Assembly (NCBI GenBank): GCA_017881445.1
Contig: JADGQX010000003.1
Span: 1-61,574 of the forward strand
DNA length: 61,574 nucleotides
Reading direction: 5' to 3'
From: Gemmatimonadota bacterium
GTDB lineage: Bacteria > Gemmatimonadota > Gemmatimonadetes > Longimicrobiales > RSA9
Shown in pieces: positions 2,503-61,574 of the stretch. Made by a program: the position numbers and the translations under genes. The notes below the pieces were generated by a model, which saw nothing but the letters and a program-made list of their open reading frames with translations, was not told the DNA's origin and did not search any database. How positions within the stretch are numbered: position 1 is the stretch's first letter; every line of letters begins with the position of its first letter.

Positions 2503-2694
2503 CCCGCGCCGCGCGGGAGCGGACAACTCCCCGCAACTCCTGTCAAATCATGGGCTTGGGACGTCGCCGGGCCTCGGCCGCGGCCCGTCCGCATGCGGCG
2601 TCCGTCCCGTCATGCGTTGCACCCTCGCCACAGCGCGGGCCGCCGCGCCGACGGTCGAACGCGCCCCTCACATTTGCTGGTTTCGCCCCGGTCG

Positions 2695-2727: not shown

Positions 2728-2807
2728 TCTGGATCGCCCCCGGGCGTCGCCGGGCGAATTAGCCGCAAGCGCATGTGTGATATGTCCTTACGGACTTCGC
2801 CCCGACC

Positions 2808-2824
2808 CGGCACACCCCCTGCTT
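2808..2824 (+). promoter_or_regulatory. putative sigma-54 (-24/-12) promoter of the sulfate uptake operon
   Basis: CGGCAC-ACCCC-CTGCT compares with the consensus TGGCAC-N5-TTGCW. GG is at 2809-2810 and GC at 2821-2822 with the correct 10-nt spacing, about 58 bp upstream of the cysA GTG. Confidence 0.45.
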
Positions 2825-2880
2825 TAGGCCACTGCGCAAATCGCGGGAAAATGCGGGCACACCGGCGAAAGGACGGGAGA

Positions 2881-6379: not shown

Positions 6380-6386
6380 CCCAGCC

Positions 6387-7220
6387 ATGGCGAGATCGCG
6401 CGCGAAGAATGTGCTGCCCGGCTTCGGGCTCACCCTCGGCTTCACCCTGCTCTACCTGAGCCTGATCGTGCTCATCCCCCTGGCGGCGTTGCTGCTGAAG
6501 AGCACGTCGCTCACCTGGGGGCAGTTCTGGGGCGTGGTGAGCAATCCCCGGGTGCTGGCCGCCTACCGCCTGAGCTTCGGCGCGGCGCTGGGCGCCGCGC
6601 TGGTCAACGCCCTGTTCGGGCTGCTCCTGGCCTGGGTGCTGGTGCGCTATTCCTTCCCCGGCCGGCGGCTGATAGACGCCCTGGTGGACCTGCCCTTCGC
6701 TCTGCCCACGGCCGTGGCGGGGATCACCCTGACGGCGCTGTTCGCGAAGACGGGCTGGCTGGGCGCGCCCCTGCACGCGCTGGGCATCGACGTGGCCTAC
6801 ACGCCGCTGGGCGTCATGATCGCGCTCACGTTCATCGGCCTGCCCTTCGTGGTGCGCACGGTCCAGCCGGTGCTGGAGGACCTGGCGGCGGAGCGCGAGG
6901 AGGCGGCGGCCATGCTGGGCGCCAGCCGCTGGCAGACGCTGCGCGGCATCGTGCTGCCCGAGCTCGCGCCCGCGCTGGTCACCGGCTTCGCCCTCGCCTT
7001 TGCCCGCGCCACGGGCGAGTACGGCTCCATCGTGTTCATCTCCGGCAACATGCCGATGAAGACCGAGATCGCGCCGCTGGTCATCATCACCAAGCTGGAG
7101 CAGTACGACTACGCCGGCGCCACCGCGGTCGCCGTGGTCATGCTGGCGATCTCGTTCACGCTGCTGCTGGTCATCAACCTGCTCCAGGGCTGGAGCGGCC
7201 GCCGGCACGGCGAAGCCTAG
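6387..7220 (+). CDS. cysT: sulfate ABC transporter permease CysT
   Basis: ATG 6387 ([15 protein letters not shown]) follows GAGG. It has a multi-TM MetI-type permease core ([23 protein letters not shown]). Confidence 0.85.
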
Positions 7221-7235
7221 CCCGATAGGAGATCT

Positions 7236-8228
7236 ATGCACGTCGTCAACATCTCGCGCCAGAGCGCCAGCCGGCAGCTGCGCCAGGCCACGACGGAGCC
7301 CGCCGCGGTGCGCTGGCTCCTGGTCGCCGTCGCCCTCGCCTTCGTCGGTGTCTTCCTGGTGCTGCCGCTGGTGGCCGTGGCGGCGCAGGCGCTCAAGGCC
7401 GGGCTGGGCGCGTTCGGCGCCGCCATCCTGGACCCGGACACGCTCGCCGCCGTGCGGCTCACGCTGCTGACGGCGGCGATCGCCGTGCCCCTGAACGTCG
7501 TCTTCGGCGTCGCCGCCGCCTGGGCCATTGCCCGCTTCGAGTTCACCGGTCGCAGCCTGCTGATCACCCTGATCGACTTGCCCTTCGCGGTCTCGCCCGT
7601 GATCGCGGGGCTGATCTACGTGCTGCTCTTCGGGATGCAGGGCTGGCTCGGCCCGTGGCTGGCCGACCACGACGTCGCCATCATCTTCGCCGTCCCCGGG
7701 ATCGTGCTGGCGACGATCTTCGTCACGTTCCCCTTCGTGGCCCGGGAGCTGATTCCGCTGATGCGGGCGCAGGGGCCGGAGGAGGAGCAGGCGAGCGTGG
7801 TGCTGGGGGCCAGCGGCTGGCAGACCTTCCGCTACGTCACCCTGCCCAACGTGAAGTGGGGACTGCTCTACGGCGTCATCATCCTGAACGCCCGCGCCAT
7901 GGGGGAATTCGGCGCGGTCTCCGTGGTGTCGGGCCACATCCGCGGCCTGACCAACACGATCCCCCTCCACGTCGAGATCCTGTACAACGAGTACCAGACG
8001 ACGGCGGCGTTCGCGGTCGCGTCCATCCTCACGCTGCTCGGGCTGGTCACGCTGGTGGCCAAGACCATCGCCGACCGCAAGCGCGCCCAGAGCCTGGTCC
8101 CGCTCGCCGCCCTGGCCGAGGACCCGGCGCATTCCGCACCACCGCACCTTGACCTCGCCGGGCACGCGCTGCAGGCTCGGAGCGCCGGCGCGGCGCTCGG
8201 GACCCCGGCGCAGGAAGCGTGGGCCTGA
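7236..8228 (+). CDS. cysW: sulfate ABC transporter permease CysW
   Basis: AGGAG Shine-Dalgarno sequence. The permease core is [26 protein letters not shown]. This is the second permease of the cys operon. Confidence 0.85.
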
Positions 8229-13282: not shown

Positions 13283-15355
13283 ATGCGTGACGAGGCGATG
13301 GTGTCGGCGACGGGGAGTCAGGGGCTGGCCCAGCGGCTGCGGCGGACGGCGCGGATCCTCCTCCGCGAGGCCGCCACCGCGTTCGAGCGCACGCCTCTCG
13401 AGGTGCTTCTGGGCGCGTGCGCGGCGGTCGGCTTCTCGCTGGCCATGGAGCGGGACAAGCTGGAGCCATTCGCGCGCTCCCTCGCCGCCGTCGGCATCGC
13501 GCTCCCGCTGACCTACGCCGCCAGTGTGCTGCGCGAGCGGGGCCTCGTTCCGGCCTGGCTGCGCTGGGGCATCTCCGCCGCTGCCGTCGCGGCGGGCGCC
13601 GTCTGGGGCTTCCTGCTCCTGGACCCCGCACGCGTGGCGGACGTCTGGCGCTGCTGGCTGCTCTGCGGTGCCAGTGTCGCGGCACTGCTCTGCGTACCTC
13701 TCCTGGACCGGGACGGGGGAGACCGGCGCGAGCGGACCCATCGTTTCGTTGCGCGCCTCGCCGCCCGCGCGGCCGTGGTCGTCGCCTACGCCGGCGCGCT
13801 CTGGATCGGGCTCTCCCTGGCGCTGGCGGCGGTCAACGGCCTGTTCGAGCTGCACATGGACGGCAAGGCCTACGGGCATCTCGCCTCGGCGTTGTTCATC
13901 CTGATGCCCCCCTGGGCGGTCGCCGCCGGGCTGCCGGCGCTCGTGGCGCCGATCGAGCCCTGGCGGGAGCCGCAGCTTCGGCTCTTCCGCCGCATCGGCG
14001 CCCTCCTGCTGGCGCCGCTCCTGCTCGTGTACCTGGCCATCGTCTACGCCTACACGGTGCGCGTGCTGGCGACGGGCGAGGTGCCGAAGAACCTGGTCTC
14101 GCCCGTGGTGATCGGAGCGGGGCTGCTCATCGTGGCGACGACCATCGCCCTCGAGCCAACCCACGACGACGAGGGAGCCGCCGGGCTCGCGTGGCTGCTG
14201 CGCATGGCGGCGCCGCTCCTGCTGCCGCTCGTGCTCTTCGCCATCTGGGCCGTTTCCACCCGTGTCGATCAGTACGGCTGGACGGAATTCCGCTACCTGC
14301 GACTCCTGGCCCTCGCGCTCCTGGCCGCCTACGGCGCCGCGGCCCTCTACCGCCTGCTGCGCCGCCGGCGTCCGCCGCTGACCGCCGTTCCGGCCGTGGC
14401 GGCGATCACGCTCCTGCTGGCGGCGATCGGGCCCTGGAGCGCGCCGGCCGTGGCGCGGCACAGCCAGACCGGGGCGCTGCGCCAGCTGCTGGCGGCGACC
14501 GGACGGACGGGCGCCGGCGGCGCCCCCAGTGCGGTCGAGCCGGCGGTGTTCCGCGGCATCACGGACAAGGCCGCCTACCTGCGCGGGCACTTCGGTTGGA
14601 CCGCAGTCAGAGAGGTGGTGCCCTGGATCGGCGCGCAGCCGGCCGAGCGGGGCGGCCCGCCCTTCTACGCGACGCGCATCGGCATCGTCGAGCGCATGGC
14701 CGCCGGGATGACCCGCGTCGTGAACGCGCGCCTGCCGGTCGGGCGCGGCATCCCGGGGGTCGAGCGCGGAACGCTCTTCCCCTTCGAGTCGGGGCCCGCT
14801 CCGGCGCCGCGGCCGCTGCAGTCCGGGCGCCCCGCGGGGACGGCGGGCGCCGCCGCGAAGGCGCCGCAGCCCGGGCAGCTGGTGGTGAGGATCGACAGCG
14901 CCTCGGGCCGGCTGCTCGTCGCCGTGCCCGCCGGAGATACGCTGGTCGCGGACGTCACGTCGCTGGTACAGGCGCTGATAGAGCGTTCGTCGTCCCGGAC
15001 CGGCACCCTGATCTATGAGGGCCGGCCGCGGGGCAATCGCGAAGAGCAGGCGGCAAGCGGGCGCTCCTTCGACCTCGAGCTCGACCCCGGGGAGGTGGTG
15101 CAGCCGCTTCGCCACGCCGACGGCCGCCCCGCCGGCCAGCTGGTCCTGCTCCGGCTCCAGGTCGAGTCCGCGCCCGCCGCTGCGAGGCCCGGGGCGGCCG
15201 CGGCGCCGGGGAGCGGCCCGCCGGCGCTGCCGGCTCCGGTGCTGCGCGTCCGCTCGGCCGAGGGGTTCGTCATCCTCTCGGCGCCCTACTCCTCCACCGT
15301 CATCCGCCCGACGCCGAAGACCCGTCGGTCGCTCGTCTCCAGCACGACGCGGTAG
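13283..15355 (+). CDS. polytopic membrane protein (DUF4153-like)
   Basis: ATG 13283 follows GGGAGAG. About 10 hydrophobic segments are followed by a soluble C-terminal region. The family assignment is from memory only. Confidence 0.55.
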   Translation: MRDEAMVSATGSQGLAQRLRRTARILLREAATAFERTPLEVLLGACAAVGFSLAMERDKLEPFARSLAAVGIALPLTYAASVLRERGLVPAWLRWGISAAAVAAGAVWGFLLLDPARVADVWRCWLLCGASVAALLCVPLLDRDGGDRRERTHRFVARLAARAAVVVAYAGALWIGLSLALAAVNGLFELHMDGKAYGHLASALFILMPPWAVAAGLPALVAPIEPWREPQLRLFRRIGALLLAPLLLVYLAIVYAYTVRVLATGEVPKNLVSPVVIGAGLLIVATTIALEPTHDDEGAAGLAWLLRMAAPLLLPLVLFAIWAVSTRVDQYGWTEFRYLRLLALALLAAYGAAALYRLLRRRRPPLTAVPAVAAITLLLAAIGPWSAPAVARHSQTGALRQLLAATGRTGAGGAPSAVEPAVFRGITDKAAYLRGHFGWTAVREVVPWIGAQPAERGGPPFYATRIGIVERMAAGMTRVVNARLPVGRGIPGVERGTLFPFESGPAPAPRPLQSGRPAGTAGAAAKAPQPGQLVVRIDSASGRLLVAVPAGDTLVADVTSLVQALIERSSSRTGTLIYEGRPRGNREEQAASGRSFDLELDPGEVVQPLRHADGRPAGQLVLLRLQVESAPAAARPGAAAAPGSGPPALPAPVLRVRSAEGFVILSAPYSSTVIRPTPKTRRSLVSSTTR

Positions 15356-16239
15356 TGGCCCGGGGGGACCGAGCCGGATGGCGGATGCCAGCCGTCCCAC
15401 ACGCGGAAGCCGTTGGCGTTCGCGGTGATGGTGACGTCCCTGGATAGGCGCAGGAGGGCGCCATCCCGCTGCCATTCGAGCTGCACGGTCGCCGGGACGG
15501 CCGTGGGCGAGAAAACCTCGAACAGCACGAAGAGCGCCCCGTCCAGCTTCTTCGACGAGGTGTGAGCGGCCAGCGGATGCCGCAAGACGAGGTCGTTCCG
15601 GTCGATGACGGAAGCGAAGCTGACGCGCTCCAGGCGCAGGGGCACCGGAGGGATGATCTGCGGAAAGCCCAGGACCACGCCCAGCATCCCCAGCGCGGCG
15701 GCCGCGAGCAGGAACCGCGCACGTCGTACCTTGCGCATGGTGCGCACCGCCAGTATCGCGGCGCCCCCGACGGACAGCAGCGCCGCGGCCGGGGCGGCCA
15801 CGCGAGGCTCGACCCTGGCGAGCAGCGGAATCAGCAGGTTGATGGCCGCGAACGCGACCATCGCGAAGAACGTGAGCGCGAACAGCGGGCGGGTGCGGAG
15901 CCAGCGGTCGAAGAGAAGATCGACGCACGAGAAAACGGCCAACCCGCCCAGGAGCACCAGGAACACGACGTTGGGCGAGCGCAGAACGGTGGAGTACGCA
16001 TAGAACGGCAGCAGGAAGAAGAGCGTCTCCTGGTAGAGCACGCGCGTCACGTAGGAGGTCACCTCCCGCACGAGCCCGGGGGCGCCTTCCGGCTCGAGCG
16101 CCGCGGCTCGGCCGAAGAAGAGCGTGGAGGCCCAAGTCAGGGTGAGGAAGAGCACCACCCACGGCACGAGGTGATAGCGCTCCCGCGCCAGCAGCAAGAC
16201 GACGGTGCCGCTGGCGAGCGCCCACGTCGAGTGCAGCAT
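15286..16239 (-). CDS. membrane protein with C-terminal DUF2914-like domain
   Basis: Minimal start is ATG 16239 (MLHSTWALASG); alternative upstream non-ATG starts are possible. A multi-TM N-terminus is followed by a C-terminal beta-rich domain (VQLEWQRDGALL...GHYRVVLETSD). Confidence 0.55.
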   Translation of the reverse strand: MLHSTWALASGTVVLLLARERYHLVPWVVLFLTLTWASTLFFGRAAALEPEGAPGLVREVTSYVTRVLYQETLFFLLPFYAYSTVLRSPNVVFLVLLGGLAVFSCVDLLFDRWLRTRPLFALTFFAMVAFAAINLLIPLLARVEPRVAAPAAALLSVGGAAILAVRTMRKVRRARFLLAAAALGMLGVVLGFPQIIPPVPLRLERVSFASVIDRNDLVLRHPLAAHTSSKKLDGALFVLFEVFSPTAVPATVQLEWQRDGALLRLSRDVTITANANGFRVWDGWHPPSGSVPPGHYRVVLETSDRRVFGVGRMTVEE

Positions 16240-16444
16240 CCAGAACAGGCTCCGGTGGCTGCCCCAGAACCGGCCTGCTCCTGCGCGCAGTGAGCGCGCC
16301 CCCGCCTGGATGCTCAAGAGCCGAGATCCTCCCGCACCTGGCCGTCCTCCTCCAAGTCGAAGCACACGTACGTTGAAGAGTGGACGATTGACCGGGTGTG
16401 CACAACGTCCGGCGCGGCCGTTTCGAGCTTTCAACGAGGATGGA

Positions 16445-17860
16445 ATGACGATGAGAATCGGCCGACTGACCACGACGGCCCTTTGCGTCCTGCTGGCCAG
16501 CGCCGTACACGCTACCGGCGCGCGCTCCCAGGTCGTGCCACTCTGGGCGCGCGGCGCGCCGGGCTCCGAAGGGAGGACCGCCCAGGAATCCGTCCGGTTG
16601 ACGCCGGAGGGCGAGCACATCGTGTCACAGGTCCATCGCCCCTCGATCACGGCGTTTCTTCCCGACAGCAGCCTGGCAACGGGAACGGCCGTGATCGTGA
16701 TTCCCGGCGGCGGTCATCGTGAGCTGTGGATGGACCACGAAGGCTATCGAGTGGGTCAATGGCTGAGCGCTCACGGTATCGCCGCGTTCGTGCTCAAGTA
16801 CCGTCTGGCCCGGGAAGAGGGCTCCAGCTACACCGTCGAGGGCGACGCGCTGGCGGACGTGCAGCGCGCGATCCGCGTGGCGAAAAGCCGGGCTTCCGAG
16901 TGGCGGATCTCGCCCGATCGGATCGGTGTGCTCGGGTTCTCCGCGGGAGGAGAGCTGGCCGCCCTCGCGGGTACCCGCTTCGACGCAGGCATGCCGGGCG
17001 CTGACGATCCGATCGACCGCACCAGCTCCAGGCCCGCCTTCATGGCGCTGATGTACCCGGCGATCCCGCGGGACATGACGCTCTCCAGGGACACGCCGCC
17101 CACCTTCCTCATGTGCGGTGAGAACGACTCGCCGACGATCTCGGAAGGCGTCGCCACGCTCTATCTCGCGCTCAAGCACGCCGGCGCCCCCGTCGAGCTG
17201 CACATCCTCACCGGCGTCGGACACGGCTTCGGCATTCGCGACGGCAATCCGCCCGCGGTGACCGCCTGGACGACGCTTCTCTACGACTGGCTCGCCGCTC
17301 GCCACCTGTCGGACCCGCTGCCCGGTCCCCCGCGGATCAGCACCCAGATGCGCGATGGGATCCCGAACGCGCCGTACATCCCTCCCTACTCCGCCGGCGA
17401 ACGCGCCTCGGCCGCACAGCGCATCCTGAAGAGCGCCTCGCCTCCCACACTGGGCGCGGTCGTAACGCTAACGCCCAATGAGCCTTACGCGGCCGATGGT
17501 TCGCACCTCTCCATCTGGAAGCCGTCCTTCGTCCTGGGAACCGCCAACGGAGGCGAGGTGGGCGTGAATTTCTGGGGCATCCACGACGAGGGGCACGTGA
17601 ACGTCGGCTTCAGGCCGGCTTCCGGCACCTCCACGCTGCTGGACTGTCGCCTGCTTTCGACGGGGGGGATCGCGTTCAGGATCTACAATGGACCGAGCGA
17701 CTCGCCCAGCACGAAGGGCGAGCGTGCACTGGACCACGGCCACGTCCTGCTGGTCGTTCCCGCACCCCCGGCGGGCGGATCGGTTTCCGTGGAGCTGTGG
17801 CCCGCGCCGATCACGGCGACCACGGGTTTCTTCGGCTGCACCCTGAGCGCGATCGACTGA
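16445..17860 (+). CDS. secreted alpha/beta-hydrolase (esterase) with an uncharacterised ~180-aa C-terminal domain
   Basis: The signal peptide is MTMRIGRLTTTALCVLLASAVHA. It has an oxyanion-type PGGGH and the nucleophile elbow GFSAGG. I recognise no family for the C-terminal third. Confidence 0.7.
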   Translation: MTMRIGRLTTTALCVLLASAVHATGARSQVVPLWARGAPGSEGRTAQESVRLTPEGEHIVSQVHRPSITAFLPDSSLATGTAVIVIPGGGHRELWMDHEGYRVGQWLSAHGIAAFVLKYRLAREEGSSYTVEGDALADVQRAIRVAKSRASEWRISPDRIGVLGFSAGGELAALAGTRFDAGMPGADDPIDRTSSRPAFMALMYPAIPRDMTLSRDTPPTFLMCGENDSPTISEGVATLYLALKHAGAPVELHILTGVGHGFGIRDGNPPAVTAWTTLLYDWLAARHLSDPLPGPPRISTQMRDGIPNAPYIPPYSAGERASAAQRILKSASPPTLGAVVTLTPNEPYAADGSHLSIWKPSFVLGTANGGEVGVNFWGIHDEGHVNVGFRPASGTSTLLDCRLLSTGGIAFRIYNGPSDSPSTKGERALDHGHVLLVVPAPPAGGSVSVELWPAPITATTGFFGCTLSAID

Positions 17861-17864
17861 CCGC

Positions 17865-18578
17865 TCAGTCCGCCGACGTCCCCAGCAGCTGCTCCGCGCA
17901 GAGGGCGCCATCGGGCGTGTCTTCGTGCTTGAAGAAGACGAAGACGTCCTTCCCGCCGCCCACCAGGTCCCGGGCCCGCGTCCGCATGGTGGCGATCTCG
18001 TCGGGCCCATATTCGGGCTTCCGCAGCCGGAAGTAGACGAAATCGGCCGTGACCACCTGCGGCACCGTCAGCTTGTCGGATTCGGCCAGGCAGAGCGAGA
18101 CGTTCCGCTCGGCCAGCAGCCGATAGACCGGCTCGACCAGCCATGACTCGTGGCGGAACTCGAAGGCGGTGCGCACGTCGGCCGGGAGCAGCGTGAGATA
18201 GTCGCGCAGCAGCTCGACATCGCAGCGCAGGTAGGGCGGGAGCTGGAACAGCACCGGGCCCAACCGGCCGGCGGCACGCAGGGGATCGAGCGCTCCCAGG
18301 AAGTAGGCGGTCGGCTGGGCCGCGTCCTTCAGCTTCTGGAAGTGCGTGATGCGCTGGTTGGCCTTCAGGGCGAAGCGGAATCCGGCCGGCGTGGCCGCGG
18401 CCCAGCCGGCGAGTGTGCCCGCCGCCGGCATGCGCCGGAAGGTGTAGTTGATCTCCACGGAGTTCAGCCGCGTCGCGTAGTGCTCGAGGAACTTCTTCTG
18501 GGGCAGGTCGCGAGGATAGAAGCCGGGTTTCCAGTTGGGGTACGCGAAGCCCGACGTGCCCGCGAAGAGCTGAGCCAT
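17865..18578 (-). CDS. DUF72 (YecE-like) family protein
   Basis: ATG 18578 starts MAQLFAGTSGFAYPNWKPGFYP...FLEHYATRLNSVEINYTFRRMP, the typical DUF72 N-terminus. The upstream part of the 400-aa track ORF is compositional noise. Confidence 0.8.
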   Translation of the reverse strand: MAQLFAGTSGFAYPNWKPGFYPRDLPQKKFLEHYATRLNSVEINYTFRRMPAAGTLAGWAAATPAGFRFALKANQRITHFQKLKDAAQPTAYFLGALDPLRAAGRLGPVLFQLPPYLRCDVELLRDYLTLLPADVRTAFEFRHESWLVEPVYRLLAERNVSLCLAESDKLTVPQVVTADFVYFRLRKPEYGPDEIATMRTRARDLVGGGKDVFVFFKHEDTPDGALCAEQLLGTSAD

Positions 18579-43369: not shown

Positions 43370-43892
43370 TCACCCTCCGGGTGCCGCTTCGAGCTCCTCG
43401 CACACCCAGAGGTCCATCTCGACCGCGGCTCGCACCTGAAGTGCCGCCCTGGACTCTGCCGTCCCGATCCGCCCCAGCGCCCACGCCGCGTGTCCGCGCA
43501 CCAGCGGCTCCGGGTCCTCGAGCGCGCGCACCAGCGCCGGCACCGCCTCGGGCGCGCCCCAGTTCCCCAGCGCCACGGCGACGTTCCGGAGGAATCCCGC
43601 GCGGCGAGCCCGCCGGATCGCCGAGCCGCGCGAGAACTCGTCCCAGGCCGCCTCGTCCATCGCCAAGAGATCGGGGAGCACGGGGTAGGACGTGCCCGGG
43701 ACGGTCCGTCGTGAATCCGAATCCAGGCGCGCAGCGCCGGAATCCAGCGCCGCAGGCGCGGAGTCCGAATCCGGTCGTTTCGAGCCCGAGCCCGAGCCCG
43801 AGCCCGGCCGTGCAAGGTATCCCCTCTCCCGCGTCAGCCGCACGAACTTCTCGCCATTCCACGGGCAGACCTCCTGGGAGATCTGCCGACTC
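43370..43892 (-). pseudogene. queG 3'-end copy A (from the distal Fe-S motif to the stop)
   Basis: It begins ...SQEVCPWNGEKFVRLTRERGYLAR (CQEVCPWN with the first Cys replaced). It continues AMDEAAWDEFSRGSAIRRARRAGFLRNVAVALGNWGAPEAVPALVRALEDPEPLVRGHAAWALGRIG, near-identical to full-length QueG at 54399..55658. There is no N-terminal catalytic part. Confidence 0.8.
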
Positions 43893-48510: not shown

Positions 48511-49132
48511 TCAATCCACGCCGTCAGGCGGGGGGGCGAAAGCAAGGCGGATCTCCTCGCGCACGCACCGGTCGTCCTGATGCTCAAGGCGTACTTCGAG
48601 CGCCGCCAGCGCTTCCGCCGTCCCGATCCTCCCCAGCGCCCACGCCGCATGCCCGCGCACGAGCGGCTCTGCGTCCTCGAGCGCCCGCACGAGCGCCGGC
48701 ACCGCCTCAGGCGCCCTCCAGTTCCCCAGCGCGACCGCGACATTCCTGAGAAACCCCGCCCGTTTGGCCCGCCGGATCGCCGACCCTCGCGAGAACTCGT
48801 CCCAGGCTACCTCATCCATCGCCATGAGATCGAGGAGTGCCGGACCGGAGGTGTCCGGGATGGAAGCGGAAACCCGCGAGGCTGAGGCCGCCCCTTCCGA
48901 GCCCGAATCCGAATCCAGCGCCGCAGGCGCGGAATCCGAATCCGTGTGTTTCAAGCGCTTCCGGGTCCGGCCACTTTCGGAGAAGCCGGATTCGGATTCG
49001 GATTCCGGCACTGCGTGCCTGGATTCGGATTCGGTGAGGCGCGACGCCCGAGGAAGGTAGCCCGGCTCCCGCATCAGCCGGACCATCTTCGGGCTATTCC
49101 ACGGGCACACTTCCTGGGTGGATTGCCGACTC
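48511..49132 (-). pseudogene. queG 3'-end copy B
   Basis: It begins ...TQEVCPWNSPKMVRLMREPGYLPRA and continues through a long Ser/Asp/Glu linker to AMDEVAWDEFSRGSAIRRAKRAGFLRNVAVALGNWRAPEAVPALVRALEDAEPLVRGHAAWALGRIG. Homology to copy A starts at the same nucleotide position (GAGTCGGCA on the coding strand). Confidence 0.8.
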
Positions 49133-50554: not shown

Positions 50555-50785
50555 TCAATCCGGGTGCGCGAGGGCGGCGAGGTCCAACTCCTCCAGCACC
50601 GCCCCGTCCCGCTCCCGCGCGAGCCGCACCTCCAGCGCCGCCCTCGCCTCCGCCGTCCCGATCCTCCCCAGCGCCCATGCCGCGTGCCCGCGAACCAGCG
50701 GCTCCGGGTCCTCGAGCGCCCGCGTCAGCGCCGGCACCGCCTCAGGCGCTCCCCAGTTCCCCAGCGCCACCGCCACATTGCGCAG
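50555..50785 (-). pseudogene. queG 3'-end copy C (shortest)
   Basis: RNVAVALGNWGAPEAVPALTRALEDPEPLVRGHAAWALGRIGTAEARAALEVRLARERDGAVLEELDLAALAHPD. Nucleotide homology to the other copies stops abruptly after ...CACATTGCGCAG (about 50785). Confidence 0.75.
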
Positions 50786-52642: not shown

Positions 52643-53568
52643 TTACGTATGCGCGATCTCAGGCGCCATCGCGACCTCGTTCTCCTGGTTCGCCGGCTCC
52701 TCTTCACCCTTCATCGTCCCGAACTTGGCGGCGACGAACGCAGTGACGAGCGGGACCATGACCGCGGTGATGACCACCGCCGCCGCGACCAGGATGGTGG
52801 CGCTTTGGGCCGCATCGGCGTAAACGGGATTTGCCGCCGCGATGATGGCAGGCACCGCCGCGGCGTTGCCCGCGGTCGACGCCGCGGCCACACCTGCCAC
52901 GCCGGTTCCTCCGGTCAGGCGATCCACGAAGAACAGAGCGATGCCGGTGACGGCCACCACAGCAACGCCGACGCCAACGCCGAGCAAGCCGGCGGACCAG
53001 ACCTTGCTCAGGTCGAGCGAGGCGCCGAGGCCGAAGGCGAAGAACGGGATGAGGCCGGGCGCGATCTTGCCCAGGAAGCCCCGCATCTCGCGGTCCAGGT
53101 TACCCATCGCCATGCCGATCCGCAGCGGAAGGATAGCGCCCAGCATGGCCTGCCACGGAAACGCGGCCAGCCCCGCCATTCCGAGCGTCACCATGGTCAG
53201 AAACGGCCCGGACTCCAATCGCCGCCACGATCGCCAGAGTGGAAAGCCCCGCGAACATGCCGCCGCTGATGGGCGCCTCCCCCAGAAAGTGGCCGAAGAT
53301 GAGACCGAAGGTGGCGCCGATTCCGATCTTGGTCAGAAACAGCGAACCGCCTTTCTTGAGGACACGCCTGGATGTCGATGCTGGCGCCCATGCAGACGAA
53401 GAAGGCGGCCAGAGTCGGCATGGGGTTGAACAGCGCCCCGGTGAACGATCCGAAGAACTTGGGTGTCTCGGGAAAGAAAGTATTGATGATGGCGCCGGTC
53501 AGCAGTGGAACGACCATCATTCCACCCGGAACCTTTTCGATCAGGCGCTTGATTCGAATCTGCATCAC
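52643..53568 (-). pseudogene. kdgT: 2-keto-3-deoxygluconate permease KdgT, disrupted
   Basis: The N-terminus MQIRIKRLIEKVPGGMMVVPLLTGAI...FFVCMGASIDIQ is in one frame. [16 protein letters not shown]...[14 protein letters not shown] is in a second frame. [15 protein letters not shown]...[14 protein letters not shown]... is in a third frame (ORF 52643..53218). About 30 codons are missing between the last two segments compared with E. coli KdgT as I recall it. Confidence 0.6.
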
Positions 53569-54398: not shown

Positions 54399-55658
54399 TC
54401 AGTCTGGAACCGCCGCGATAAGCTCATCTCGCACGTAGGCATCCTCCTCCACTGCCCGGCGCTCCTCCAGCGCTGCCTGCGCCTCCGCCGTCCCGATCCT
54501 CTGCAGCGCCCACGCCGCGTGCCCGCGCACCAGCGGCTCCGGGTCCTCGAGCGCGCGCACGAGCGCCGGCACCGCCTCGGGCGCGCCCCAGTTCCCCAGG
54601 GCGACCGCGACGTTCCGCAGGAACCCCGCACGACGAGCGCGCCGGATCGCCGACCCGCGCGAGAACTCGTCCCAGGCGGCTTCGTCCATGGCGATGAGGT
54701 CGAGGAGCGCAGGCCCGGAGGTGCCCGGAATGGCGGCCGCCGCTGCCCGTCCCGAATCCGACTCCGAATCCGGCCGTTTCGGGCCCGGGCCCGGGCCCGG
54801 GCCCGTTTGTTCCGGCGGCCGCGGCGCCCGCGCCAGATACCCCGGCTCCCGCGTCAGCCGGACGAACCTGGCGTTATTGAACGGACAAACGGATTGGCAG
54901 ATGTCGCAACCGAACACCCGGTTGCCGATGGCCGGCCGCAGCTCGCGCGGGATCGGGCCGCGCAGCTCGATGGTGAGGTAGGAGATGCAGCGGCGGGCAT
55001 CGATGACCGGGGCGCCGGCGTCGTCCCGCCCCAGGAGCGCGCCGGTGGGGCAGGCGCCGAGGCAGGCGTCGCAGGAGCCGCAGCGATCCTCGGCGAAAGC
55101 CAGATCGGTCTCCAATTCCAGCTCCAGCAGCAGCGTGCCCAGGAAGAAGTAGGAGCCCGCCCGCGGGTCGATCATCATGGTGTTGCGGCCGAACCAGCCG
55201 ATGCCCGCGCGCCGAGCCAGCTCCCGCTCCAGCACCGGAGCGGTGTCCACGCTGGCGCGCGCCAGCGGCAGCGCCTGGCCGACCTCCGCCTCCAGCCAGC
55301 GGAGCAGTTCTACGAGCTTCGGTTTGATGACACGGTGGTAGTCGCGCCCCCGGGCGTAGCGGGCGACGACGCCGCGGGAGGGATCGTCGTCGGCCGCACC
55401 ATCGTCGCCTGGATGGTAGTTCTGGCAGACAACGAGGGCGCTGCGGAGCCCCGGCTGCGACGCCGCCGGCTCCAGCCGCCGCTGGACCGCGTCCGCCCGG
55501 GCCAGGTACGCCATCTCGCCGTGACGCCCTTGGGCCAGCCAGGCTCGGTAGAACGCCGCGTGCTCGCTGGGACCCAGCCGCGCGATGCCCGCGCGGTCGA
55601 ATCCCAGCTCCAGCGCCCGCGCCTTCAGGCGCGATTCCAGCGTCGCGTCCGCCGCCAT
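54399..55658 (-). CDS. queG: epoxyqueuosine reductase QueG (full length)
   Basis: The N-terminal DUF1730-type region has GEMAYLAR. Two ferredoxin-type motifs (CGSCDACLGACPTGAL and CDICQSVCPFN) are followed by a C-terminal HEAT-like domain. An unusual PGPGPGP/SESDS linker is inserted between them. Confidence 0.9.
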   Translation of the reverse strand: MAADATLESRLKARALELGFDRAGIARLGPSEHAAFYRAWLAQGRHGEMAYLARADAVQRRLEPAASQPGLRSALVVCQNYHPGDDGAADDDPSRGVVARYARGRDYHRVIKPKLVELLRWLEAEVGQALPLARASVDTAPVLERELARRAGIGWFGRNTMMIDPRAGSYFFLGTLLLELELETDLAFAEDRCGSCDACLGACPTGALLGRDDAGAPVIDARRCISYLTIELRGPIPRELRPAIGNRVFGCDICQSVCPFNNARFVRLTREPGYLARAPRPPEQTGPGPGPGPKRPDSESDSGRAAAAAIPGTSGPALLDLIAMDEAAWDEFSRGSAIRRARRAGFLRNVAVALGNWGAPEAVPALVRALEDPEPLVRGHAAWALQRIGTAEAQAALEERRAVEEDAYVRDELIAAVPD

Positions 55659-57176: not shown

Positions 57177-59465
57177 CTAGGACGCCACGGCTCTGCCGAG
57201 CAACGTACGAACGCGACGCGCAAGTACTAGTGGTGTAAAGGGTTTGGTCAGGATCGCGGCTTCCGGACCGGCGAGCGGCCGGGAGGACGCGGGCTCGGAT
57301 GTATCGGTGATGTAGAGGACCCTGGCGGCGTTGCAGGCGCCGGCCAGCGCCTCGACCAGGGCGAGGCCACCGGGCCCCTTCATGTTGGAGTCGGCCACGA
57401 GCAGGTCGATGGGCCGGGGTGCCCCACGGGCGGCGCGGAAGGCGGTGGCGGCGCTGTCGGCCTCGAGCAGGGCGTAGCCGCGTCGCTCCAGCGTACGGCG
57501 CACGAGGGCGCGGAGCAGCCTGTCCCGCATGGCCACGAGCACGAGGGCGGGTTCCGGCGGAGCCAGGGCGGCGGTCTCCGCGGCGTCCTCGTCGATGCGG
57601 GGCAGCGCGATCTCGAAGGTCGTGCCTATCCCGACCTCCGTCTGCACCTCGATGTTGCCATCGCTCTGCTTGACGATCCCGTAGGCCGTGGAGAGGCCCA
57701 GGCCGCTCCCCTGGCCGGAGGGCTTGGTCGTGAAGAAGGGCTCGAAGATCCGCCCGCGGGTCTCCACGTCCATTCCGGTTCCCGTGTCGCTCACCGACAG
57801 TACCACGGCCGCGCTGCCGTCCGCGGCGACCCGGTTGCGCGTGGCAATGATCAGGCGGCCACCGTCGGGCATGGCGTCGCGGGCGTTCACGACCAGGTTC
57901 ATCAGCACCTGCTCGATATGAGCGGCGTCGGCGCGGACAGTGCCCAGCTCGGGGTCGAGACGAACCTCGAGGCCGATGTCGTCGCCGACGATGCGGCGCA
58001 GCATCTTCTCGGTCTCGGCCACCACGGCGTTCAGGTCGATGGGCCGCAGCTTCAGCGGCTGTCGCCGGGCCAGTGTCAGCAACTGGCGGGTGAGCGCCGC
58101 GCCTCTCTCGGCGGCGCGGCGGATCTCCTCGGCGTCGGCGGCGCGGGGATCGTCGCCCAGCTCGTCCACCAGGAGCTGGCCGTAGCCGCGGACCGCCGTG
58201 AGCACGTTGTTGAAGTCGTGCGCGACGCCCGCGGCCAATCGGCCGATCGCCTCCATGCGCTGGGAGTGCCGGAGCTGCTCCTCCATCTGGCGCAAGGCTT
58301 CCTGCGCCTCGCGCCGGTCACTCACGTCGCGCACGGTCGCCGCGAAGCCGATCAGGCCATCCTCGGCCCCGAACTGCGGCGCCACGGTCACCACGGCCCA
58401 GAAGGCGGTGCCATCGGCGCGGCGACGCCATTCCTCCGCCTCGAACCGACCCAGGTCGAGCGTCGCCCGCAACTCGGTCTCCGGCCGACCCGCGACCACG
58501 TCCTCCTCGCGGAAGAGCAACGCGGAATCCTGGCCGACGGCCTGGGCCGCGGTGTAGCCGAACAGGTGCTCGGCGCCCGCGTTCCAGCTGATGATCCGAC
58601 CCGCCGCATCCAGCGCCACCACGGCATGGTCCCGCAGCGTCTCGGTCAACAGCCTGAAGCGCTCCTGGCTGCGCTCGAGCTCCCCTTCCATCACGCGGCG
58701 GGGCGAGGCGTCCCGCAGGACCAGCAACAGCGCCGGGCGACGGCGGAACAGCAGCGGCGTCGCCACCACGTCGGCGTCGAGGACCTCGCCGTCCAGGCGG
58801 CGCAGCCGCATCTCCAGGACGGTGCCGGTGTTCCGGGTCGCGCGCCGCGCCGCCAGCTGCCGGATCTCGTCGTTGTCGATCAGGGTGAGGGCACTCAGCT
58901 CCATGCCCACGAGGGTGCGGCGCGGCGCGCCCAGCAGCCGGCCGCACGCCGGGTTGGCATAAGCCACCACGCCCTCCCGCAGGATGAGCATGGGCTCGGG
59001 GGACAGCTCCGCCAGTCGCCGCTCGTTGCGGCGCGCCCGGGCCAGGCGGCGGCGCAGCGTGCCGCGCTCGGTGATGTCCTCCAGTGTCAGCAGCACGCGG
59101 GGCGCCGCGCCGGGCGACTGGAGCGCCGCCGCGGACATGCGCACCACCACCCGCTCCCCGCGGCGGTTGACCCCGTCCAGCTCCAGCAGGAGCGGTGACT
59201 GGCCGTGTAACGCGCCATTGACCAGCAGCCTGAGCTCGGAGGAGGCGGCGTCGCCGGCCAGGGGCAGCCGCCCACCCACGACCTCGGCCGCGCTCCAGCC
59301 GTAGGTGCGCTCGGCGGCCCGGTTCCACGCCTGCGTGGTCCGGTCCGCGTCCAGCACCGCCGCGGGGACGGGCAGCGCCTCCAGGAAGTCGGCTAGCGAC
59401 TCGCCGGTCGGGGGCGCCTCGTGGGTGTGCGGCCGCCTGGCCGCGCGCGTGATCACTCGGTTCAT
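57177..59465 (-). CDS. hybrid sensor histidine kinase (three PAS-like modules, HisKA, HATPase_c, C-terminal receiver)
   Basis: H-box AHDFNNVLTAVRGY, with DTGTGM and GSGLGLS G-boxes. The receiver carries the conserved Asp context DLLVADSNM. PAS-type segments repeat (W-x-A-A/G-E-x-x-Y/FG). Confidence 0.85.
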   Translation of the reverse strand: MNRVITRAARRPHTHEAPPTGESLADFLEALPVPAAVLDADRTTQAWNRAAERTYGWSAAEVVGGRLPLAGDAASSELRLLVNGALHGQSPLLLELDGVNRRGERVVVRMSAAALQSPGAAPRVLLTLEDITERGTLRRRLARARRNERRLAELSPEPMLILREGVVAYANPACGRLLGAPRRTLVGMELSALTLIDNDEIRQLAARRATRNTGTVLEMRLRRLDGEVLDADVVATPLLFRRRPALLLVLRDASPRRVMEGELERSQERFRLLTETLRDHAVVALDAAGRIISWNAGAEHLFGYTAAQAVGQDSALLFREEDVVAGRPETELRATLDLGRFEAEEWRRRADGTAFWAVVTVAPQFGAEDGLIGFAATVRDVSDRREAQEALRQMEEQLRHSQRMEAIGRLAAGVAHDFNNVLTAVRGYGQLLVDELGDDPRAADAEEIRRAAERGAALTRQLLTLARRQPLKLRPIDLNAVVAETEKMLRRIVGDDIGLEVRLDPELGTVRADAAHIEQVLMNLVVNARDAMPDGGRLIIATRNRVAADGSAAVVLSVSDTGTGMDVETRGRIFEPFFTTKPSGQGSGLGLSTAYGIVKQSDGNIEVQTEVGIGTTFEIALPRIDEDAAETAALAPPEPALVLVAMRDRLLRALVRRTLERRGYALLEADSAATAFRAARGAPRPIDLLVADSNMKGPGGLALVEALAGACNAARVLYITDTSEPASSRPLAGPEAAILTKPFTPLVLARRVRTLLGRAVAS

Positions 59466-59487
59466 GGCTTCGCTCAGCTCGGGATCG

Positions 59488-59508
59488 GGACGCCCGCGAA
59501 GGGCGTCC
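59488..59508 (-). other. perfect 8-bp stem / 5-nt loop hairpin 13 nt after the precursor stop
   Basis: The coding-strand RNA is GGACGCCC-UUCGC-GGGCGUCC. No U-tract follows, so it could be an attenuator or processing element rather than a classical terminator. Confidence 0.4.
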
Positions 59509-59520
59509 GCCGATCATCCC

Positions 59521-59682
59521 TCAGCGCGCGTACTCCGGCGGAGGCGCCGGATCGCCGTCGTCGGGCGGCCGTGTTCCGTAGACTTCCCAGAGCGTCCCCC
59601 CGGCACCCCGCGTCTCCTTCTCCACTTTGCCATACTCCGCCAGGGTCGGGGGTGTGTACGTCTTCTTCTGCTCGTCCTTCAT
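59521..59682 (-). CDS. lasso peptide precursor (53 aa; not in the ORF track)
   Basis: The product is MKDEQKKTYTPPTLAEYGKVEKETRGAGGTLWEVYGTRPPDDGDPAPPPEYAR, with a GAGGAG Shine-Dalgarno sequence 6 nt upstream. Residues 9-25 fit the YxxPxLx3Gx5Tx leader motif, with Thr at -2. The core starts with Gly and has Glu at position 8. Confidence 0.75.
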   Translation of the reverse strand: MKDEQKKTYTPPTLAEYGKVEKETRGAGGTLWEVYGTRPPDDGDPAPPPEYAR

Positions 59683-59727
59683 CGATTACTCCTCGCGAAT
59701 CCAGTTGGCAGCTCGGCAGCATGCGAC

Positions 59728-61542
59728 TCACGCTGCCGTACGGGCACTCTCCGGCGGCGCCCACTTTCCGGAGCGGACCGCCAGCCAGGTTTCCAGCGAA
59801 AGCGCGTGCATCAGCGCCACCAGGTTCGTCGCATGGCCGTTGCGAGCGCCCTCGACGGCCGCGCGCAAGCGGACCGGCTCGACGCAGCCGAGCTCGGCCA
59901 GTAACGGCTGCCACAGCATGGCGTCCAGCCGGCCGCGCTCGCGCTGCAGCGACCAGAGGATGCGCGCGTCCATGCCACCCTTGCCCGTGCGGGTGCGGAT
60001 CGGCTCGGGCAGCACATCGCGCATAGCCTCACGCAGCACCCACTTACGCCCCTCCGGCCGCACCCGCATCGCCACCGGCAGCCGCAGCGAGAACTCCACC
60101 AGCGGGCGGTAGAGGAAGGGGTAGCGCATTTCCAGCTCGTCGTTGAACGGCTCGCGGTCGATCCAGACCGGCAGGCGCTCGACCTCGGCCGCCACCTGCG
60201 TCTGGAAGAGCTGCCCGGGATGCGGGCCCGAGGCCCGGCCCGCGCCGGGGGCGAACTCGGGCGGTATCCACGACGGGAGACGGGGGACCGCGCCCGCCTG
60301 CCGCAGGCGCAGGGGCAGCAGCGGCTCGACGACCGTGTGCCGGGCCGTCGTCCAGAAGGACTGGCGCCGAGCGACCGCCCAGCGGGCCGCCTCGCCCAGG
60401 GCGGCGCCAATGCGGCCGTGGGCGGCCAGGTCGGCGATGTAGCCCAGGTTGCCGTACAGCAGGTGGTCGGAGCCCAGCCCGCTCAGCAGCACGTGGCCGC
60501 CGGCGCTCTTCACCACGCCGGCCAGCCGGCGGTCCCGCTCGAAGAACGGATAGATGGGGCGCGGCTCGTCCGTGAGGGGTGCGCCCGCGCCGTCGTCGCG
60601 CCAGGCCCAGAAATCGTGGATGCACTCGTTGCGCACGCCGTAGCGCGACACGATCTCGCTGGAGAACGGCCGCTCGTCGCCGTCGCCCAGGGAATCGACG
60701 ATGGTCACGGTGCCGCCCAGCCCGCCCGCCAGCTCGCCCGCGGCGTGCATCGCCTGCACGCTGGCCACCACGGAGGAAGAGTCGAGGCCGCCCGAGAGCT
60801 GCGCCCAGGTACCCGCGTCGCCGGCACGCTGCCGCAGCCCCTCACGGAACAGGCGGCGGAACTCGCCGGCCAGCGCCGCTTCGTCACCGGCGGGCTCCGG
60901 CGTGAATGCGCCGGCGCTCCAGAAACGCCGCACGCTGGCCACAGTTCCGCGCTGGAGCAGCACGGAGCCCGCGCGCAACGACCGTACGTCTTCCCAGATC
61001 GTGCGGTCGCCGGGCGTGCCGCCCGCGACCAGGAAATCGGCGATGTAGTCGAGGTCGAAGCGACCGTCCTCCTCCAGCGCCGAGAGGCGCGAGGAGAGCA
61101 GCAGCAGGTCGCCCCGGCGGGCGAGGAACAGCGGCCGCACGCCGAAGGGATCGCGGGCGGCCACCAGCTTCTGGCCGCGGGCGTCGTAGGCGGCAAAGGC
61201 GAAATCGCCGGCTAACGCGTCCACGCTGTCGGCGCCGCGCGCGTCCAGCAGCGCCAACACCAGCTCCAGGTCGCTGCCCGATTCCACGGGCTGTCCCGCG
61301 AGCGCCGCGATGTCGCGCCGGTTGTCGAGCCGCACGTCGCCCACGGCCGCCCAGTGGTGCCAGCGAGCGGTCAGCGGTCGGAGCACGTGACCCTCCGAGC
61401 GCGCCACGGCGGCGAACGGACCGAGCTCCGTCGTCAGCAGCCGCTCCGCGCGGCCACCGGCAATCCGGGCCAGCGGCCCGAAGATGTCACTGCGGCGCAG
61501 GGGCTCGCCCGTCAGGCGCAGCGCGCAGAGATAGCCGTTCAT
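59728..61542 (-). CDS. asparagine-synthetase-like lasso peptide cyclase (McjC-type)
   Basis: The AsnB fold lacks the N-terminal Cys2 nucleophile (MNGYLC...). The PP-loop LSGGLDSS is intact. The length is 604 aa and the gene sits directly upstream of the precursor ORF. Confidence 0.8.
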   Translation of the reverse strand: MNGYLCALRLTGEPLRRSDIFGPLARIAGGRAERLLTTELGPFAAVARSEGHVLRPLTARWHHWAAVGDVRLDNRRDIAALAGQPVESGSDLELVLALLDARGADSVDALAGDFAFAAYDARGQKLVAARDPFGVRPLFLARRGDLLLLSSRLSALEEDGRFDLDYIADFLVAGGTPGDRTIWEDVRSLRAGSVLLQRGTVASVRRFWSAGAFTPEPAGDEAALAGEFRRLFREGLRQRAGDAGTWAQLSGGLDSSSVVASVQAMHAAGELAGGLGGTVTIVDSLGDGDERPFSSEIVSRYGVRNECIHDFWAWRDDGAGAPLTDEPRPIYPFFERDRRLAGVVKSAGGHVLLSGLGSDHLLYGNLGYIADLAAHGRIGAALGEAARWAVARRQSFWTTARHTVVEPLLPLRLRQAGAVPRLPSWIPPEFAPGAGRASGPHPGQLFQTQVAAEVERLPVWIDREPFNDELEMRYPFLYRPLVEFSLRLPVAMRVRPEGRKWVLREAMRDVLPEPIRTRTGKGGMDARILWSLQRERGRLDAMLWQPLLAELGCVEPVRLRAAVEGARNGHATNLVALMHALSLETWLAVRSGKWAPPESARTAA

Positions 61543-61574
61543 CGCGCCAGCTCGGGCAGGACGACAAAGGAGCG
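61539..61574 (-). CDS. 3' end of an upstream gene, translationally coupled to the cyclase (rest outside the window)
   Basis: The reverse translation ...RSFVVLPELAR ends in a TGA that overlaps the cyclase ATG (ATGA). The identity cannot be determined from 11 codons. Confidence 0.3.
   Translation of the reverse strand, partial: RSFVVLPELAR

Follow-up and report, generated by a model that had tools for sequence, protein, structure and literature searches.

Lasso peptides are ribosomally made, stable knotted scaffolds of pharmaceutical interest. At the end of a Gemmatimonadota metagenome contig a small open reading frame follows an asparagine synthetase-like gene and precedes a sensor kinase gene, which raises the question whether it encodes a lasso peptide precursor or is a fortuitous frame in G+C-rich DNA. 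The window, i.e. the whole stretch of DNA analysed, is the entire contig of 61,574 bp, which leaves no room for extension within its own assembly, and its end falls within a further gene, B2. Our analysis indicates that the locus very probably is a class II lasso operon of four genes, B1-B2-C-A, of which the 3′ two-thirds lie on this Longimicrobiales-like contig. Rfam at the gathering threshold and ARAGORN gave no matches in the window. The features of the locus are listed in Table 1.

Table 1. Features at and around the putative lasso operon
Feature	Position	Strand	Remarks
B2 leader-peptidase gene, last 11 codons and stop	61539..61574	(-)	RSFVVLPELAR*; cut by contig end
Lasso cyclase C, Asn-synthetase-like	61542..59728	(-)	604 aa; no Cys2; PP-loop LSGGLDSSS, residues 249-257
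Shine-Dalgarno-like GAGGAG	59689..59694	(-)	6 nt 5′ of precursor ATG
Leader-coding part of precursor A	59608..59682	(-)	residues 1-25, MKDEQKKTYTPPTLAEYGKVEKETR; YxxPxLx3Gx5TR
Core-coding part of precursor A and stop	59521..59607	(-)	28 aa, GAGGTLWEVYGTRPPDDGDPAPPPEYAR; Gly1 and Glu8 predicted ring-forming
Stem-loop between precursor stop and kinase start	59483..59515	(-)	8 perfect core pairs, no T tract
Soluble hybrid histidine kinase	59465..57177	(-)	762 aa; three PAS, HisKA, HATPase_c, receiver

The precursor and its predicted product

The reading frame at 59682..59521 on the minus strand encodes exactly MKDEQKKTYTPPTLAEYGKVEKETRGAGGTLWEVYGTRPPDDGDPAPPPEYAR (53 aa). Residues Y9, P12, L14, G18 and T24 of the leader occupy positions -17, -14, -12, -8 and -2, and the core begins at G26 (Gly1), with E33 as Glu8. 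Published lasso leaders carry YxxPxL at -17 to -12 and Thr at -2 (PMC10368454; PMC7168211). The leader shows the spacing by which class II is recognised (YxxPxL at about -17 to -12, Thr at -2), and these residues are invariant in homologues. Likewise, the core has the small first residue and the Asp/Glu at positions 7-9 that are typical of class II, here Gly1 and Glu8, and its 28 residues contain no Cys and hence no disulfide, which sets it apart from classes I, III and IV. The initial annotation had proposed a hidden 53-codon minus-strand frame with a GAGGAG site, a YxxPxLx3Gx5Tx leader with Thr at -2 and a core with Gly1 and Glu8; sequence and translation bear out the frame and its GAGGAG, the leader register is exactly as published, and both core residues are invariant in homologues. 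The GAGGAG itself is kept only in part in the related contigs L001 and L004. The precursor is predicted to yield a 28-aa class II lasso peptide without Cys that has a Gly1-Glu8 ring and a monoisotopic mass of 2922.357 Da. At 28 aa, of which 20 form the tail, the core exceeds the usual length in this class, which counts against the lasso assignment.

The precursor is well conserved. Its homologues are 67-87% identical, and all of them retain the motif residues, Gly1 and Glu8. In the homologues P0001-P0005, Y9, P12, L14, G18, T24, R25, G26 and E33 are invariant, and in the core G26, G29, W32, E33, V34, Y35, G36 and R38 are invariant among six close homologues; Gly1 and Glu8 are also kept throughout the wider Longimicrobiales clade. 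Because the codon differences in the leader are mostly synonymous (6 synonymous vs 1 non-synonymous and 9 vs 2 in two comparisons), the precursor appears to be under purifying selection. An identical precursor peptide is encoded on contigs of four other samples, all of which end before passing the cyclase. A search of the window in all six frames with the leader regular expression gives a single match, compared with 0.08 expected from shuffles; across 861 kb of related loci there are 88 matches, each of them on the strand of the cyclase. Judged from its sequence, the 53-codon frame is a genuine, conserved lasso peptide precursor of an uncultured Gemmatimonadota bacterium. In public records such precursors are nameless or entered as "hypothetical protein".

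Cyclase, upstream genes and gene order

The 604-aa protein contains the Pfam domains Asn_synthase and GATase_7. Its N-terminus reads MNGYLC, i.e. lacks Cys2, and the PP-loop residues S250, G251, G252, D254, S255 and S256 are invariant in 30 homologues. An Asn_synthase domain with a PP-loop and without N-terminal Cys nucleophile is what characterises a lasso cyclase. The top NCBIfam match is NF033535, the lasso peptide isopeptide bond-forming cyclase (1e-49), at 169.7 bits, which is below the curated cutoff of 525 and counts against the lasso assignment. The precursor matches NF033521 lasso_leader_L3 (17.3 bits, cutoff 19) and NF033528 weakly; the NCBIfam lasso models were made for other phyla, and cyclase and precursor both stay under the curated cutoffs. 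The model for true AsnB, TIGR01536, reaches 140.5 bits vs a cutoff of 267.1, and NF006949 81.7 bits vs 499. Thus the protein has neither Cys2 nor a score above the TIGR01536 cutoff, the two marks of an AsnB, and a true AsnB was rejected on these grounds. The earlier description of an AsnB-like protein without Cys2 that retains SGGLDSS agrees with sequence and domains, and on the distinction from true asparagine synthetases that it had called for, the NCBIfam scores favour the cyclase, with NF033535 best and TIGR01536 far under its cutoff. The distance to the precursor ATG, previously given as 46 bp, is 45 nt.

An exact look-up of the window cyclase sequence returned no records, and a scan of genome contigs with this single sequence found no relatives; relatives were recovered by scanning genome contigs with an alignment. 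The cyclase is 99% identical to P0006. Sequence and profile searches of the PDB detected AsnB, hydroxyamidotransferase and beta-lactam synthetase and no lasso cyclase.

Since the contig stops inside B2, only the last 11 codons of this gene are present in the window, and B1 and B2 of this genome are known through the contigs of relatives only. The B2 stop overlaps the cyclase start as ATGA, so that the coupled gene seen earlier to run off the edge proves to be the C-terminus of B2, which resembles those of L001 (RSFVILPELAR) and L003 (RSFVIMPELAR). Contig L003 shares 98.0% DNA identity with positions 59612-61574 of the window (the last 1.96 kb) and carries, upstream of its cyclase, a PqqD gene (106 aa) followed by a Transglut_core3/NF033537 B2 gene that is ATGA-coupled to the cyclase. 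L001, L004 and L005 are arranged in the same way, and the PqqD-like RRE and transglutaminase-like protease that the initial annotation had suggested looking for are thus found directly upstream in all four. The full B2 genes of L003 and L001 score 92.5 and 96 bits with NF033537, 'lasso peptide biosynthesis B2 protein' (cutoff 33), and B2 of the relatives also matches PF13471; a B2 relative was not found in the PDB. In L003, L004 and L005 the gene before B2 encodes a PqqD protein (102-110 aa) with a PF05402 match above cutoff (60.9 bits), which places an RRE in B1 of the relatives, outside the window. The nearest solved structures to B1 of L003 are the lasso RREs TbiB1 (5v1u, E = 6.7e-9) and TfuB1 (6jx3, 0.0045). 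B1 and most of B2 would lie off the contig, as suggested by the 98%-identical contig of another sample, and their absence from the contig counts against the lasso assignment. Neither an exporter nor an immunity gene or isopeptidase was found in linkage with the operon. This also counts against a lasso system and confirms the earlier statement that the window has no exporter, which extends to the clade.

In characterised actinobacterial clusters the precursor usually comes first (A-C-B1-B2-D). The position of the precursor after the cyclase had been regarded as unusual, and we rejected it as a quirk of this locus since the precursor lies 3′ of the cyclase in 53 of the 60 Gemmatimonadota loci with enough sequence past the cyclase. 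By far most of the Gemmatimonadota loci have B1 and B2 ahead of the cyclase, and B1-B2-C-A is, by this comparison, the usual order in Gemmatimonadota. The proposed check of the small frame in related loci therefore speaks for the precursor, with homologues at the identities given above and the motif frame 3′ of the cyclase in most loci. We found nothing on gene order in the review PMC8498205. As a practical rule for Gemmatimonadota, the precursor should be sought immediately 3′ of the cyclase.

By analogy with the established lasso pathway, the PqqD-type RRE (B1) would bind the 53-aa precursor via the YxxPxL motif of the leader, and the transglutaminase-like Cys protease B2 would cut after Arg25 with Thr-2 as guide. 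The Asn-synthetase-like cyclase would then adenylate the Glu8 side chain and couple it to the new Gly1 amine, giving an 8-residue macrolactam that would be threaded by the Pro/Asp-rich 20-residue tail.

The stem-loop, the hybrid kinase and alternative readings

The core stem downstream of the precursor is formed by GGACGCCC (59508-59501) and GGGCGTCC (59495-59488) around the loop TTCGC and can be extended to 59515-59483. In L004 the stem is preserved by compensatory changes (GGGGCTCCC/GGGAGCCCC), and perfect stems of at least 8 bp follow 13 of 83 precursors vs 2.1% of control windows. The hairpin energy is not exceptional in DNA of 70% G+C (z = -1.85), which counts against the lasso assignment. 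A promoter and terminator scan of 59000-61574 returned no sites, so that the hairpin is no canonical intrinsic terminator. Thus the perfect hairpin noted initially is real and conserved, and a canonical terminator, for which the T tract is missing, it is not. Most likely, the stem-loop makes the operon transcript more stable or causes part of it to end ahead of the kinase gene.

To the reading of the small frame as a product of chance, and of the 604-aa protein as an ordinary asparagine synthetase or a different amidotransferase, we attach next to no probability. High G+C DNA does give rise to many spurious reading frames, and Pfam reports Asn_synthase and GATase domains only. Against this stand a conserved frame with synonymous-biased changes, a motif in the exact published register that always occurs on the cyclase strand, coupled B1 and B2 genes upstream, and the missing Cys2 together with the low TIGR01536 score. 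Frame conservation, the NF033537 match of B2, the recurrence in 53 of 60 loci and the strand-specific motif effectively refute a chance origin. It is also quite improbable that the cluster is of genuine ancestry but silent, defective or incomplete here, or yields an unthreaded branched-cyclic peptide. The contig stops inside B2 so that B1 and B2 of this genome are unseen, the scan of 59000-61574 shows no promoter-like site, and the core is of unusual length. However, cyclase and precursor are intact, the identical precursor recurs in four other samples, the cyclase shares 99% identity with P0006, and the codon differences point to purifying selection; moreover, the operon begins outside the window, and the promoter scan was one for consensus sites of the sigma-70 type.

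A further alternative concerns the role of the peptide rather than its identity. The gene after the precursor was earlier described as a PAS-PAS-PAS hybrid kinase, and the domain search agrees. We consider it unlikely that the lasso peptide mainly signals through this adjacent kinase, in an autoinducer-like or intracellular manner, with B1-B2-C-A-HK acting as one module and not producing an exported antibiotic. In favour of such signalling, about 20 of the 51 Gemmatimonadota loci long enough to contain it have a kinase of the same subfamily directly 3′ of, and co-oriented with, the precursor. These precursor-adjacent kinases score 244-1458 bits against the window kinase, while 13 other histidine-kinase-like ORFs in the 861 kb reach at most 50 bits, and all eight that were tested share the PAS-HisKA-HATPase-REC architecture. 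Cyclase identities between pairs of loci correlate with those of the kinase core (r = 0.84, a value reached in 0 of 2000 permutations); the same correlation is expected from shared vertical descent. The versions in Gemmatimonadales have an N-terminal domain with roughly 8-10 membrane-spanning segments, and the kinase is absent from all ten loci with an ABC ATPase. On the other hand, no membrane segment was found in the window kinase and no exporter is linked, so that a route for an extracellular signal is not evident. The kinase is missing in L005 and several other close relatives, and a conserved stem-loop separates the precursor and kinase genes. Furthermore, the kinases of actinobacterial class I clusters regulate production and do not sense the peptide (PMC7168211). 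We are equally doubtful that B1-B2-C-A-HK forms a conserved five-gene module that is an alternative to exporter-linked clusters, in which the peptide would be, or would be controlled by, the signal sensed by the kinase. In Gemmatimonadales the kinase of this arrangement is a polytopic membrane protein, and in Longimicrobiales it is a soluble protein with three PAS domains. Judged by the size and strand of neighbouring ORFs, no conserved gene follows the kinase. With the locus read as a class II lasso operon, the kinase probably regulates, or responds to, the lasso system.

Relation to known lasso systems

The split-B class II systems of TbiB1 (5v1u/5v1v) and fusilassin TfuB1 (6jx3) resemble the present locus in the separate PqqD-type RRE, the transglutaminase-like B2, the leader with YxxPxL and Thr-2 and the Asn-synthetase-like cyclase. 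They differ in that here the precursor comes last (B1-B2-C-A), no ABC exporter is linked, the host belongs to the Gemmatimonadota and the core shows no sequence relationship to the peptides of those systems. The ring of microcin J25 (mcjABCD) is an 8-residue Gly1-Glu8 macrolactam, as predicted here, and its leader also has Thr at -2. The mcj cluster differs in that its B protein is fused, McjD serves as dedicated exporter and immunity protein, the precursor gene comes first and the core measures 21 aa; the present locus has a 28-aa core with a long Pro/Asp-rich tail and no linked exporter. Siamycin-like class I clusters (humidimycin, MS-271, aborycin) share a histidine kinase in or adjoining the cluster, and HumG/MslG and HumR1/R2 regulate production there (PMC7168211). 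However, those clusters comprise membrane-type two-component kinases, separate DNA-binding regulators, exporters and disulfide-forming enzymes, whereas here a single PAS hybrid kinase with fused receiver accompanies a Cys-free class II core, and no DNA-binding regulator is linked.

Lasso clusters of the same phylum and cluster class have been predicted with antiSMASH in 29 marine Gemmatimonadota MAGs (PMC11316326); counts are given there, and we found in that study no precursor sequences, gene order, kinase linkage or characterised product. RODEO has predicted 7,701 lasso precursors, a figure cited in PMC12480086. The lasso class itself and the standard class II cluster are known; what is new is one uncharacterised member, and the recurring sensor kinase gene 3′ of the precursor is the sole mildly new aspect. 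Our literature search found no characterised lasso peptide from Gemmatimonadota. As such a peptide is lacking and the precursors are unnamed, the locus offers, for an unexplored phylum, a specific precursor that can be tested, together with its predicted mass and the full set of enzymes. The kinase linkage, never seen together with an exporter, provides a handle on the largely unknown native function of lasso peptides. If the kinase and the lasso genes do form one module, this would mean a role in peptide signalling instead of an antibiotic role for a lasso peptide.

Precursor, cyclase and stem-loop at the contig end

The initial annotation proposed a hidden lasso-peptide precursor behind an AsnB-like gene, and this reading as a whole is supported. 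Strand reading and the ORF listing of 59300-61574 reproduced the 53-codon ORF and its GAGGAG site, and the encoded peptide reads MKDEQKKTYTPPTLAEYGKVEKETR|GAGGTLWEVYGTRPPDDGDPAPPPEYAR. The leader expression Y..P.[LVIM]...G.....T. matches once in the six frames of the window compared to a mean of 0.08 in shuffled sequence. A search of ~5.8 billion proteins identified five homologues with 67-87% identity, and public sources list such peptides as "hypothetical protein" or without a name. The invariant residues (Q5, K6, K7, Y9, T10, P11, P12, T13, L14, E16, G18, V20, E21, E23, T24 and R25 on the leader side; G26, G29, W32, E33, V34, Y35, G36 and R38 on the core side) span the full leader motif, the predicted cleavage site, Gly1, Glu8 and the stretch right behind the ring. 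The C-terminal tail is variable among homologues. The two candidate plug residues of the core, Tyr10 and Arg13, are equally retained by the close relatives. Codon differences in the leader are mostly synonymous (6 vs 1 and 9 vs 2 in comparison with the related loci L001 and L004). Furthermore, contigs from four further samples encode the same 53 residues without change, between a cyclase and a kinase fragment wherever the contig extends far enough. The NCBIfam lasso precursor models NF033521 (17.3 bits, cutoff 19) and NF033528 (E = 0.002) match below threshold. Judged by this conservation, which the initial annotation had named as a check, the ORF represents a real gene.

The top NCBIfam match of the cyclase is NF033535, lasso peptide isopeptide bond-forming cyclase (1e-49), while the AsnB equivalog TIGR01536 scores 140.5 bits against a cutoff of 267.1. 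The N-terminus reads MNGYLC, so Cys2 is absent, and residues 249-257 are LSGGLDSSS; both points agree with the initial description. The adjacency to the precursor likewise holds, at a distance of 45 nt and not 46. PP-loop residues are invariant across 30 homologues. Source names of cyclase homologues are Longimicrobiales or Gemmatimonadota, and the PDB relatives comprise only AsnB, a hydroxyamidotransferase and beta-lactam synthetase. A cysteine near the N-terminus, Cys6 in the window (61527-61525), is kept in at least 90% of the 30 homologues and may be a remnant of the glutaminase nucleophile.

The hairpin noted behind the precursor is present (GGACGCCC, loop TTCGC, GGGCGTCC). It has no T tract, and at 70% G+C a fold of this energy is nothing unusual (z = -1.85). 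The stem is preserved in L001; that of L004 differs in sequence yet is again perfect (GGGGCTCCC/GGGAGCCCC), so that the changes are compensatory. Perfect stems of at least 8 bp occur within 70 nt downstream of 13 of the 83 distinct precursors, compared to 2.1% of windows drawn at random from these loci, and those of at least 10 bp are enriched ~60-fold past precursors. The stem-loop is best read as a putative 3' stabiliser or partial terminator.

Features of the lasso locus, its relatives and the flanking DNA
Feature	Location	Strand	Remarks
Gene running off the window	61574 edge	minus	ends ...RSFVVLPELAR*; stop overlaps cyclase start as ATGA
Cyclase C, 604 aa	61542..59728	minus	Pfam Asn_synthase + GATase_7
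Ribosome-binding-site-like GAGGAG	59694-59689	minus	6 nt before precursor ATG
Precursor A, 53 aa	59682..59521	minus
Stem-loop 3' of precursor	extendable to 59515-59483	minus
Kinase HK, 762 aa	59465..57177	minus	Pfam: three PAS regions, HisKA, HATPase_c, Response_reg
queG	54399-55658	minus
queG 3' copies	54458-54733, 50622-50779, 48588-48863, 43455-43704		same orientation
KdgT (2-keto-3-deoxygluconate permease) frame	52643-53218, 53197-53568	minus	apparently split into two overlapping ORFs
Gene 3' end before PqqD gene, 95 aa	L003 3-290		no Pfam match of its own
PF03807 (F420_oxidored) gene	L004 8382-9089		directly upstream of B1; position equivalent to L003 95-aa fragment
Kinases with N-terminal hydrophobic domain	L037 8078-10741; L040, L042, L044, L049, L054, L056, L063, L064, L069		Gemmatimonadales
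ABC-ATPase-like loci	L024, L029, L030, L036, L041, L051, L057, L058, L060, L061		several: ORF between B1 and B2

Leader peptidase, recognition element and gene order

The window is the entire contig, and the ATGA-coupled gene leaving its edge was found again. Locus L003, from another contig, is 98.0% identical to 59612-61574 over 1,963 bp (its cyclase, P0006, is 99% identical) and extends further upstream. It encodes a 132-aa Transglut_core3 protein, ATGA-coupled to the cyclase and with the C-terminus RSFVIMPELAR, which at 92.5 bits clears the cutoff of 33 for NF033537, "lasso peptide biosynthesis B2 protein". Preceding it is a 106-aa PqqD protein (PF05402, 60.9 bits) that also matches both NCBIfam lasso PqqD chaperone models; among solved structures, the lasso RREs TbiB1 (5v1u, E = 6.7e-9) and TfuB1 (6jx3) come closest to it. 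The B1-B2-C-A layout recurs in L001 (6.8 kb at 90% identity to the window), L004 (cyclase 72% identical) and L005, a locus on a 5.4-Mb Gemmatimonadales chromosome (cyclase 59% identical). Thus the peptidase and RRE expected past 61574 lie directly upstream of the cyclase in all four loci. L004 and L005 have an upstream HisKA/HATPase kinase and OmpR-type regulator as well; we know of no tie of these genes or of the F420_oxidored gene to lasso tailoring.

A scan with the cyclase alignment, in which each species was represented by one genome, yielded 79 loci, all from Gemmatimonadota or Acidobacteriota, the latter mostly Vicinamibacterales. All 88 matches of the leader expression in the 861 kb of pooled loci are on the cyclase strand. 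One to six precursors directly follow the cyclase in 53 of 60 Gemmatimonadota loci with at least 250 bp past it, the great majority with B1 and B2 upstream, whereas the order in Vicinamibacterales is A-B2-C-B1. A precursor behind the cyclase, initially considered unusual, is therefore the phylum rule, and the points listed as unusual are phylum-normal or contig-end artefacts.

The Vicinamibacterales loci L070-L075 and L078-L084 (order A-B2-C-B1, ~2300-8100) have Cys-rich cores, e.g. DCxGxCxDG, and most carry a different histidine kinase upstream on the same strand (37-50 bits against the window kinase). Multiple precursors occur in L018, L024, L025, L050, L051 and L057-L061, with up to six behind one cyclase in L024 (7871-10904). 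In one family from these loci the cores end in GFGL; since M, I, S, V, A, L, Q, E or T, not Gly, follows the T-R leader end, its cleavage site or first core residue may be atypical.

Hybrid kinase and flanking DNA

Pfam confirms the next gene as a PAS-PAS-PAS hybrid kinase. Of the 51 Gemmatimonadota loci with enough sequence to hold one, about 20 have a homologue in the same orientation directly behind the precursor, among them Gemmatimonadales with cyclases only 40% identical to that of the window. These precursor-adjacent kinases score 244-1458 bits against the window kinase, compared to at most 50 bits for the remaining histidine-kinase-like ORFs, of which the 861 kb yielded 13, and all eight adjacent kinases tested are PAS-HisKA-HATPase-REC proteins. 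Longimicrobiales kinases, including that of the window, are soluble and have no membrane segment; those of Gemmatimonadales carry an additional N-terminal domain of ~340 aa with ~8-10 hydrophobic segments and no Pfam match. Identity matrices of cyclase and kinase core correlate with r = 0.84, a value reached by none of 2000 permutations and likewise predicted by common descent. In 10 Gemmatimonadota loci the lasso operon contains or adjoins ABC-ATPase-like ORFs, and the downstream kinase is absent from all 10. The ORFs behind the kinase, compared by size and strand, include no conserved gene. As kinases regulate production in siamycin-like class I clusters (PMC7168211), which likewise carry them, the linkage is not unprecedented in kind. 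Taken together, the association of kinase and lasso operon is suggestive.

Farther along, the 3' part of queG, coding for the C-terminal HEAT repeats, is present in four same-orientation copies (~85% identical, 160-276 bp), separated by gene sets for LarA-like protein and KdgT permease, Fic/DOC, and arabinofuranosidase-like and Sde182-like proteins. The pattern suggests that insertions occurred one after another at the 3' end of queG; the ORFs tested included no integrase. In L005, the VitK2_biosynth gene has as its neighbours (13810-17877) a large serine recombinase of 744 aa (Resolvase/Recombinase), small ORFs and an AAA protein; queG takes this position in the window and L001, and the site may be an insertion hot spot. 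Of the 305 positions in the KdgT profile, the 191-aa ORF covers only 141-304, and the split could reflect a frameshift or faulty assembly.

Predicted lasso peptide

All sequence-testable defining features of a class II lasso cluster were found, B1 and B2 on the near-identical contig and not in the window. By analogy with the established lasso pathway (PMC10368454, PMC7168211), B1 would bind the YxxPxL leader, B2 would cut after Arg25, and C would activate the Glu8 side chain and join it to Gly1, closing the ring with the tail inside. This predicts a class II peptide of 28 residues that has no Cys and a monoisotopic mass of 2922.357 Da. Gly1 and Glu8, invariant in the close homologues, are also kept in the cores of Longimicrobiales relatives, where position 7 is usually aromatic and position 10 often aromatic or Met; this conservation supports the initially predicted Gly1-Glu8 macrolactam. 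We consider it very probable that the locus is an authentic lasso operon whose peptide is of the Gly1-Glu8 type.

Lasso clusters in Gemmatimonadota MAGs have been counted with antiSMASH (PMC11316326), and the literature searched for this phylum yielded no characterised product, precursor description or mention of kinase linkage. The locus is a new, uncharacterised member of the known lasso class, whose sole possibly new feature is the five-gene arrangement B1-B2-C-A-HK.
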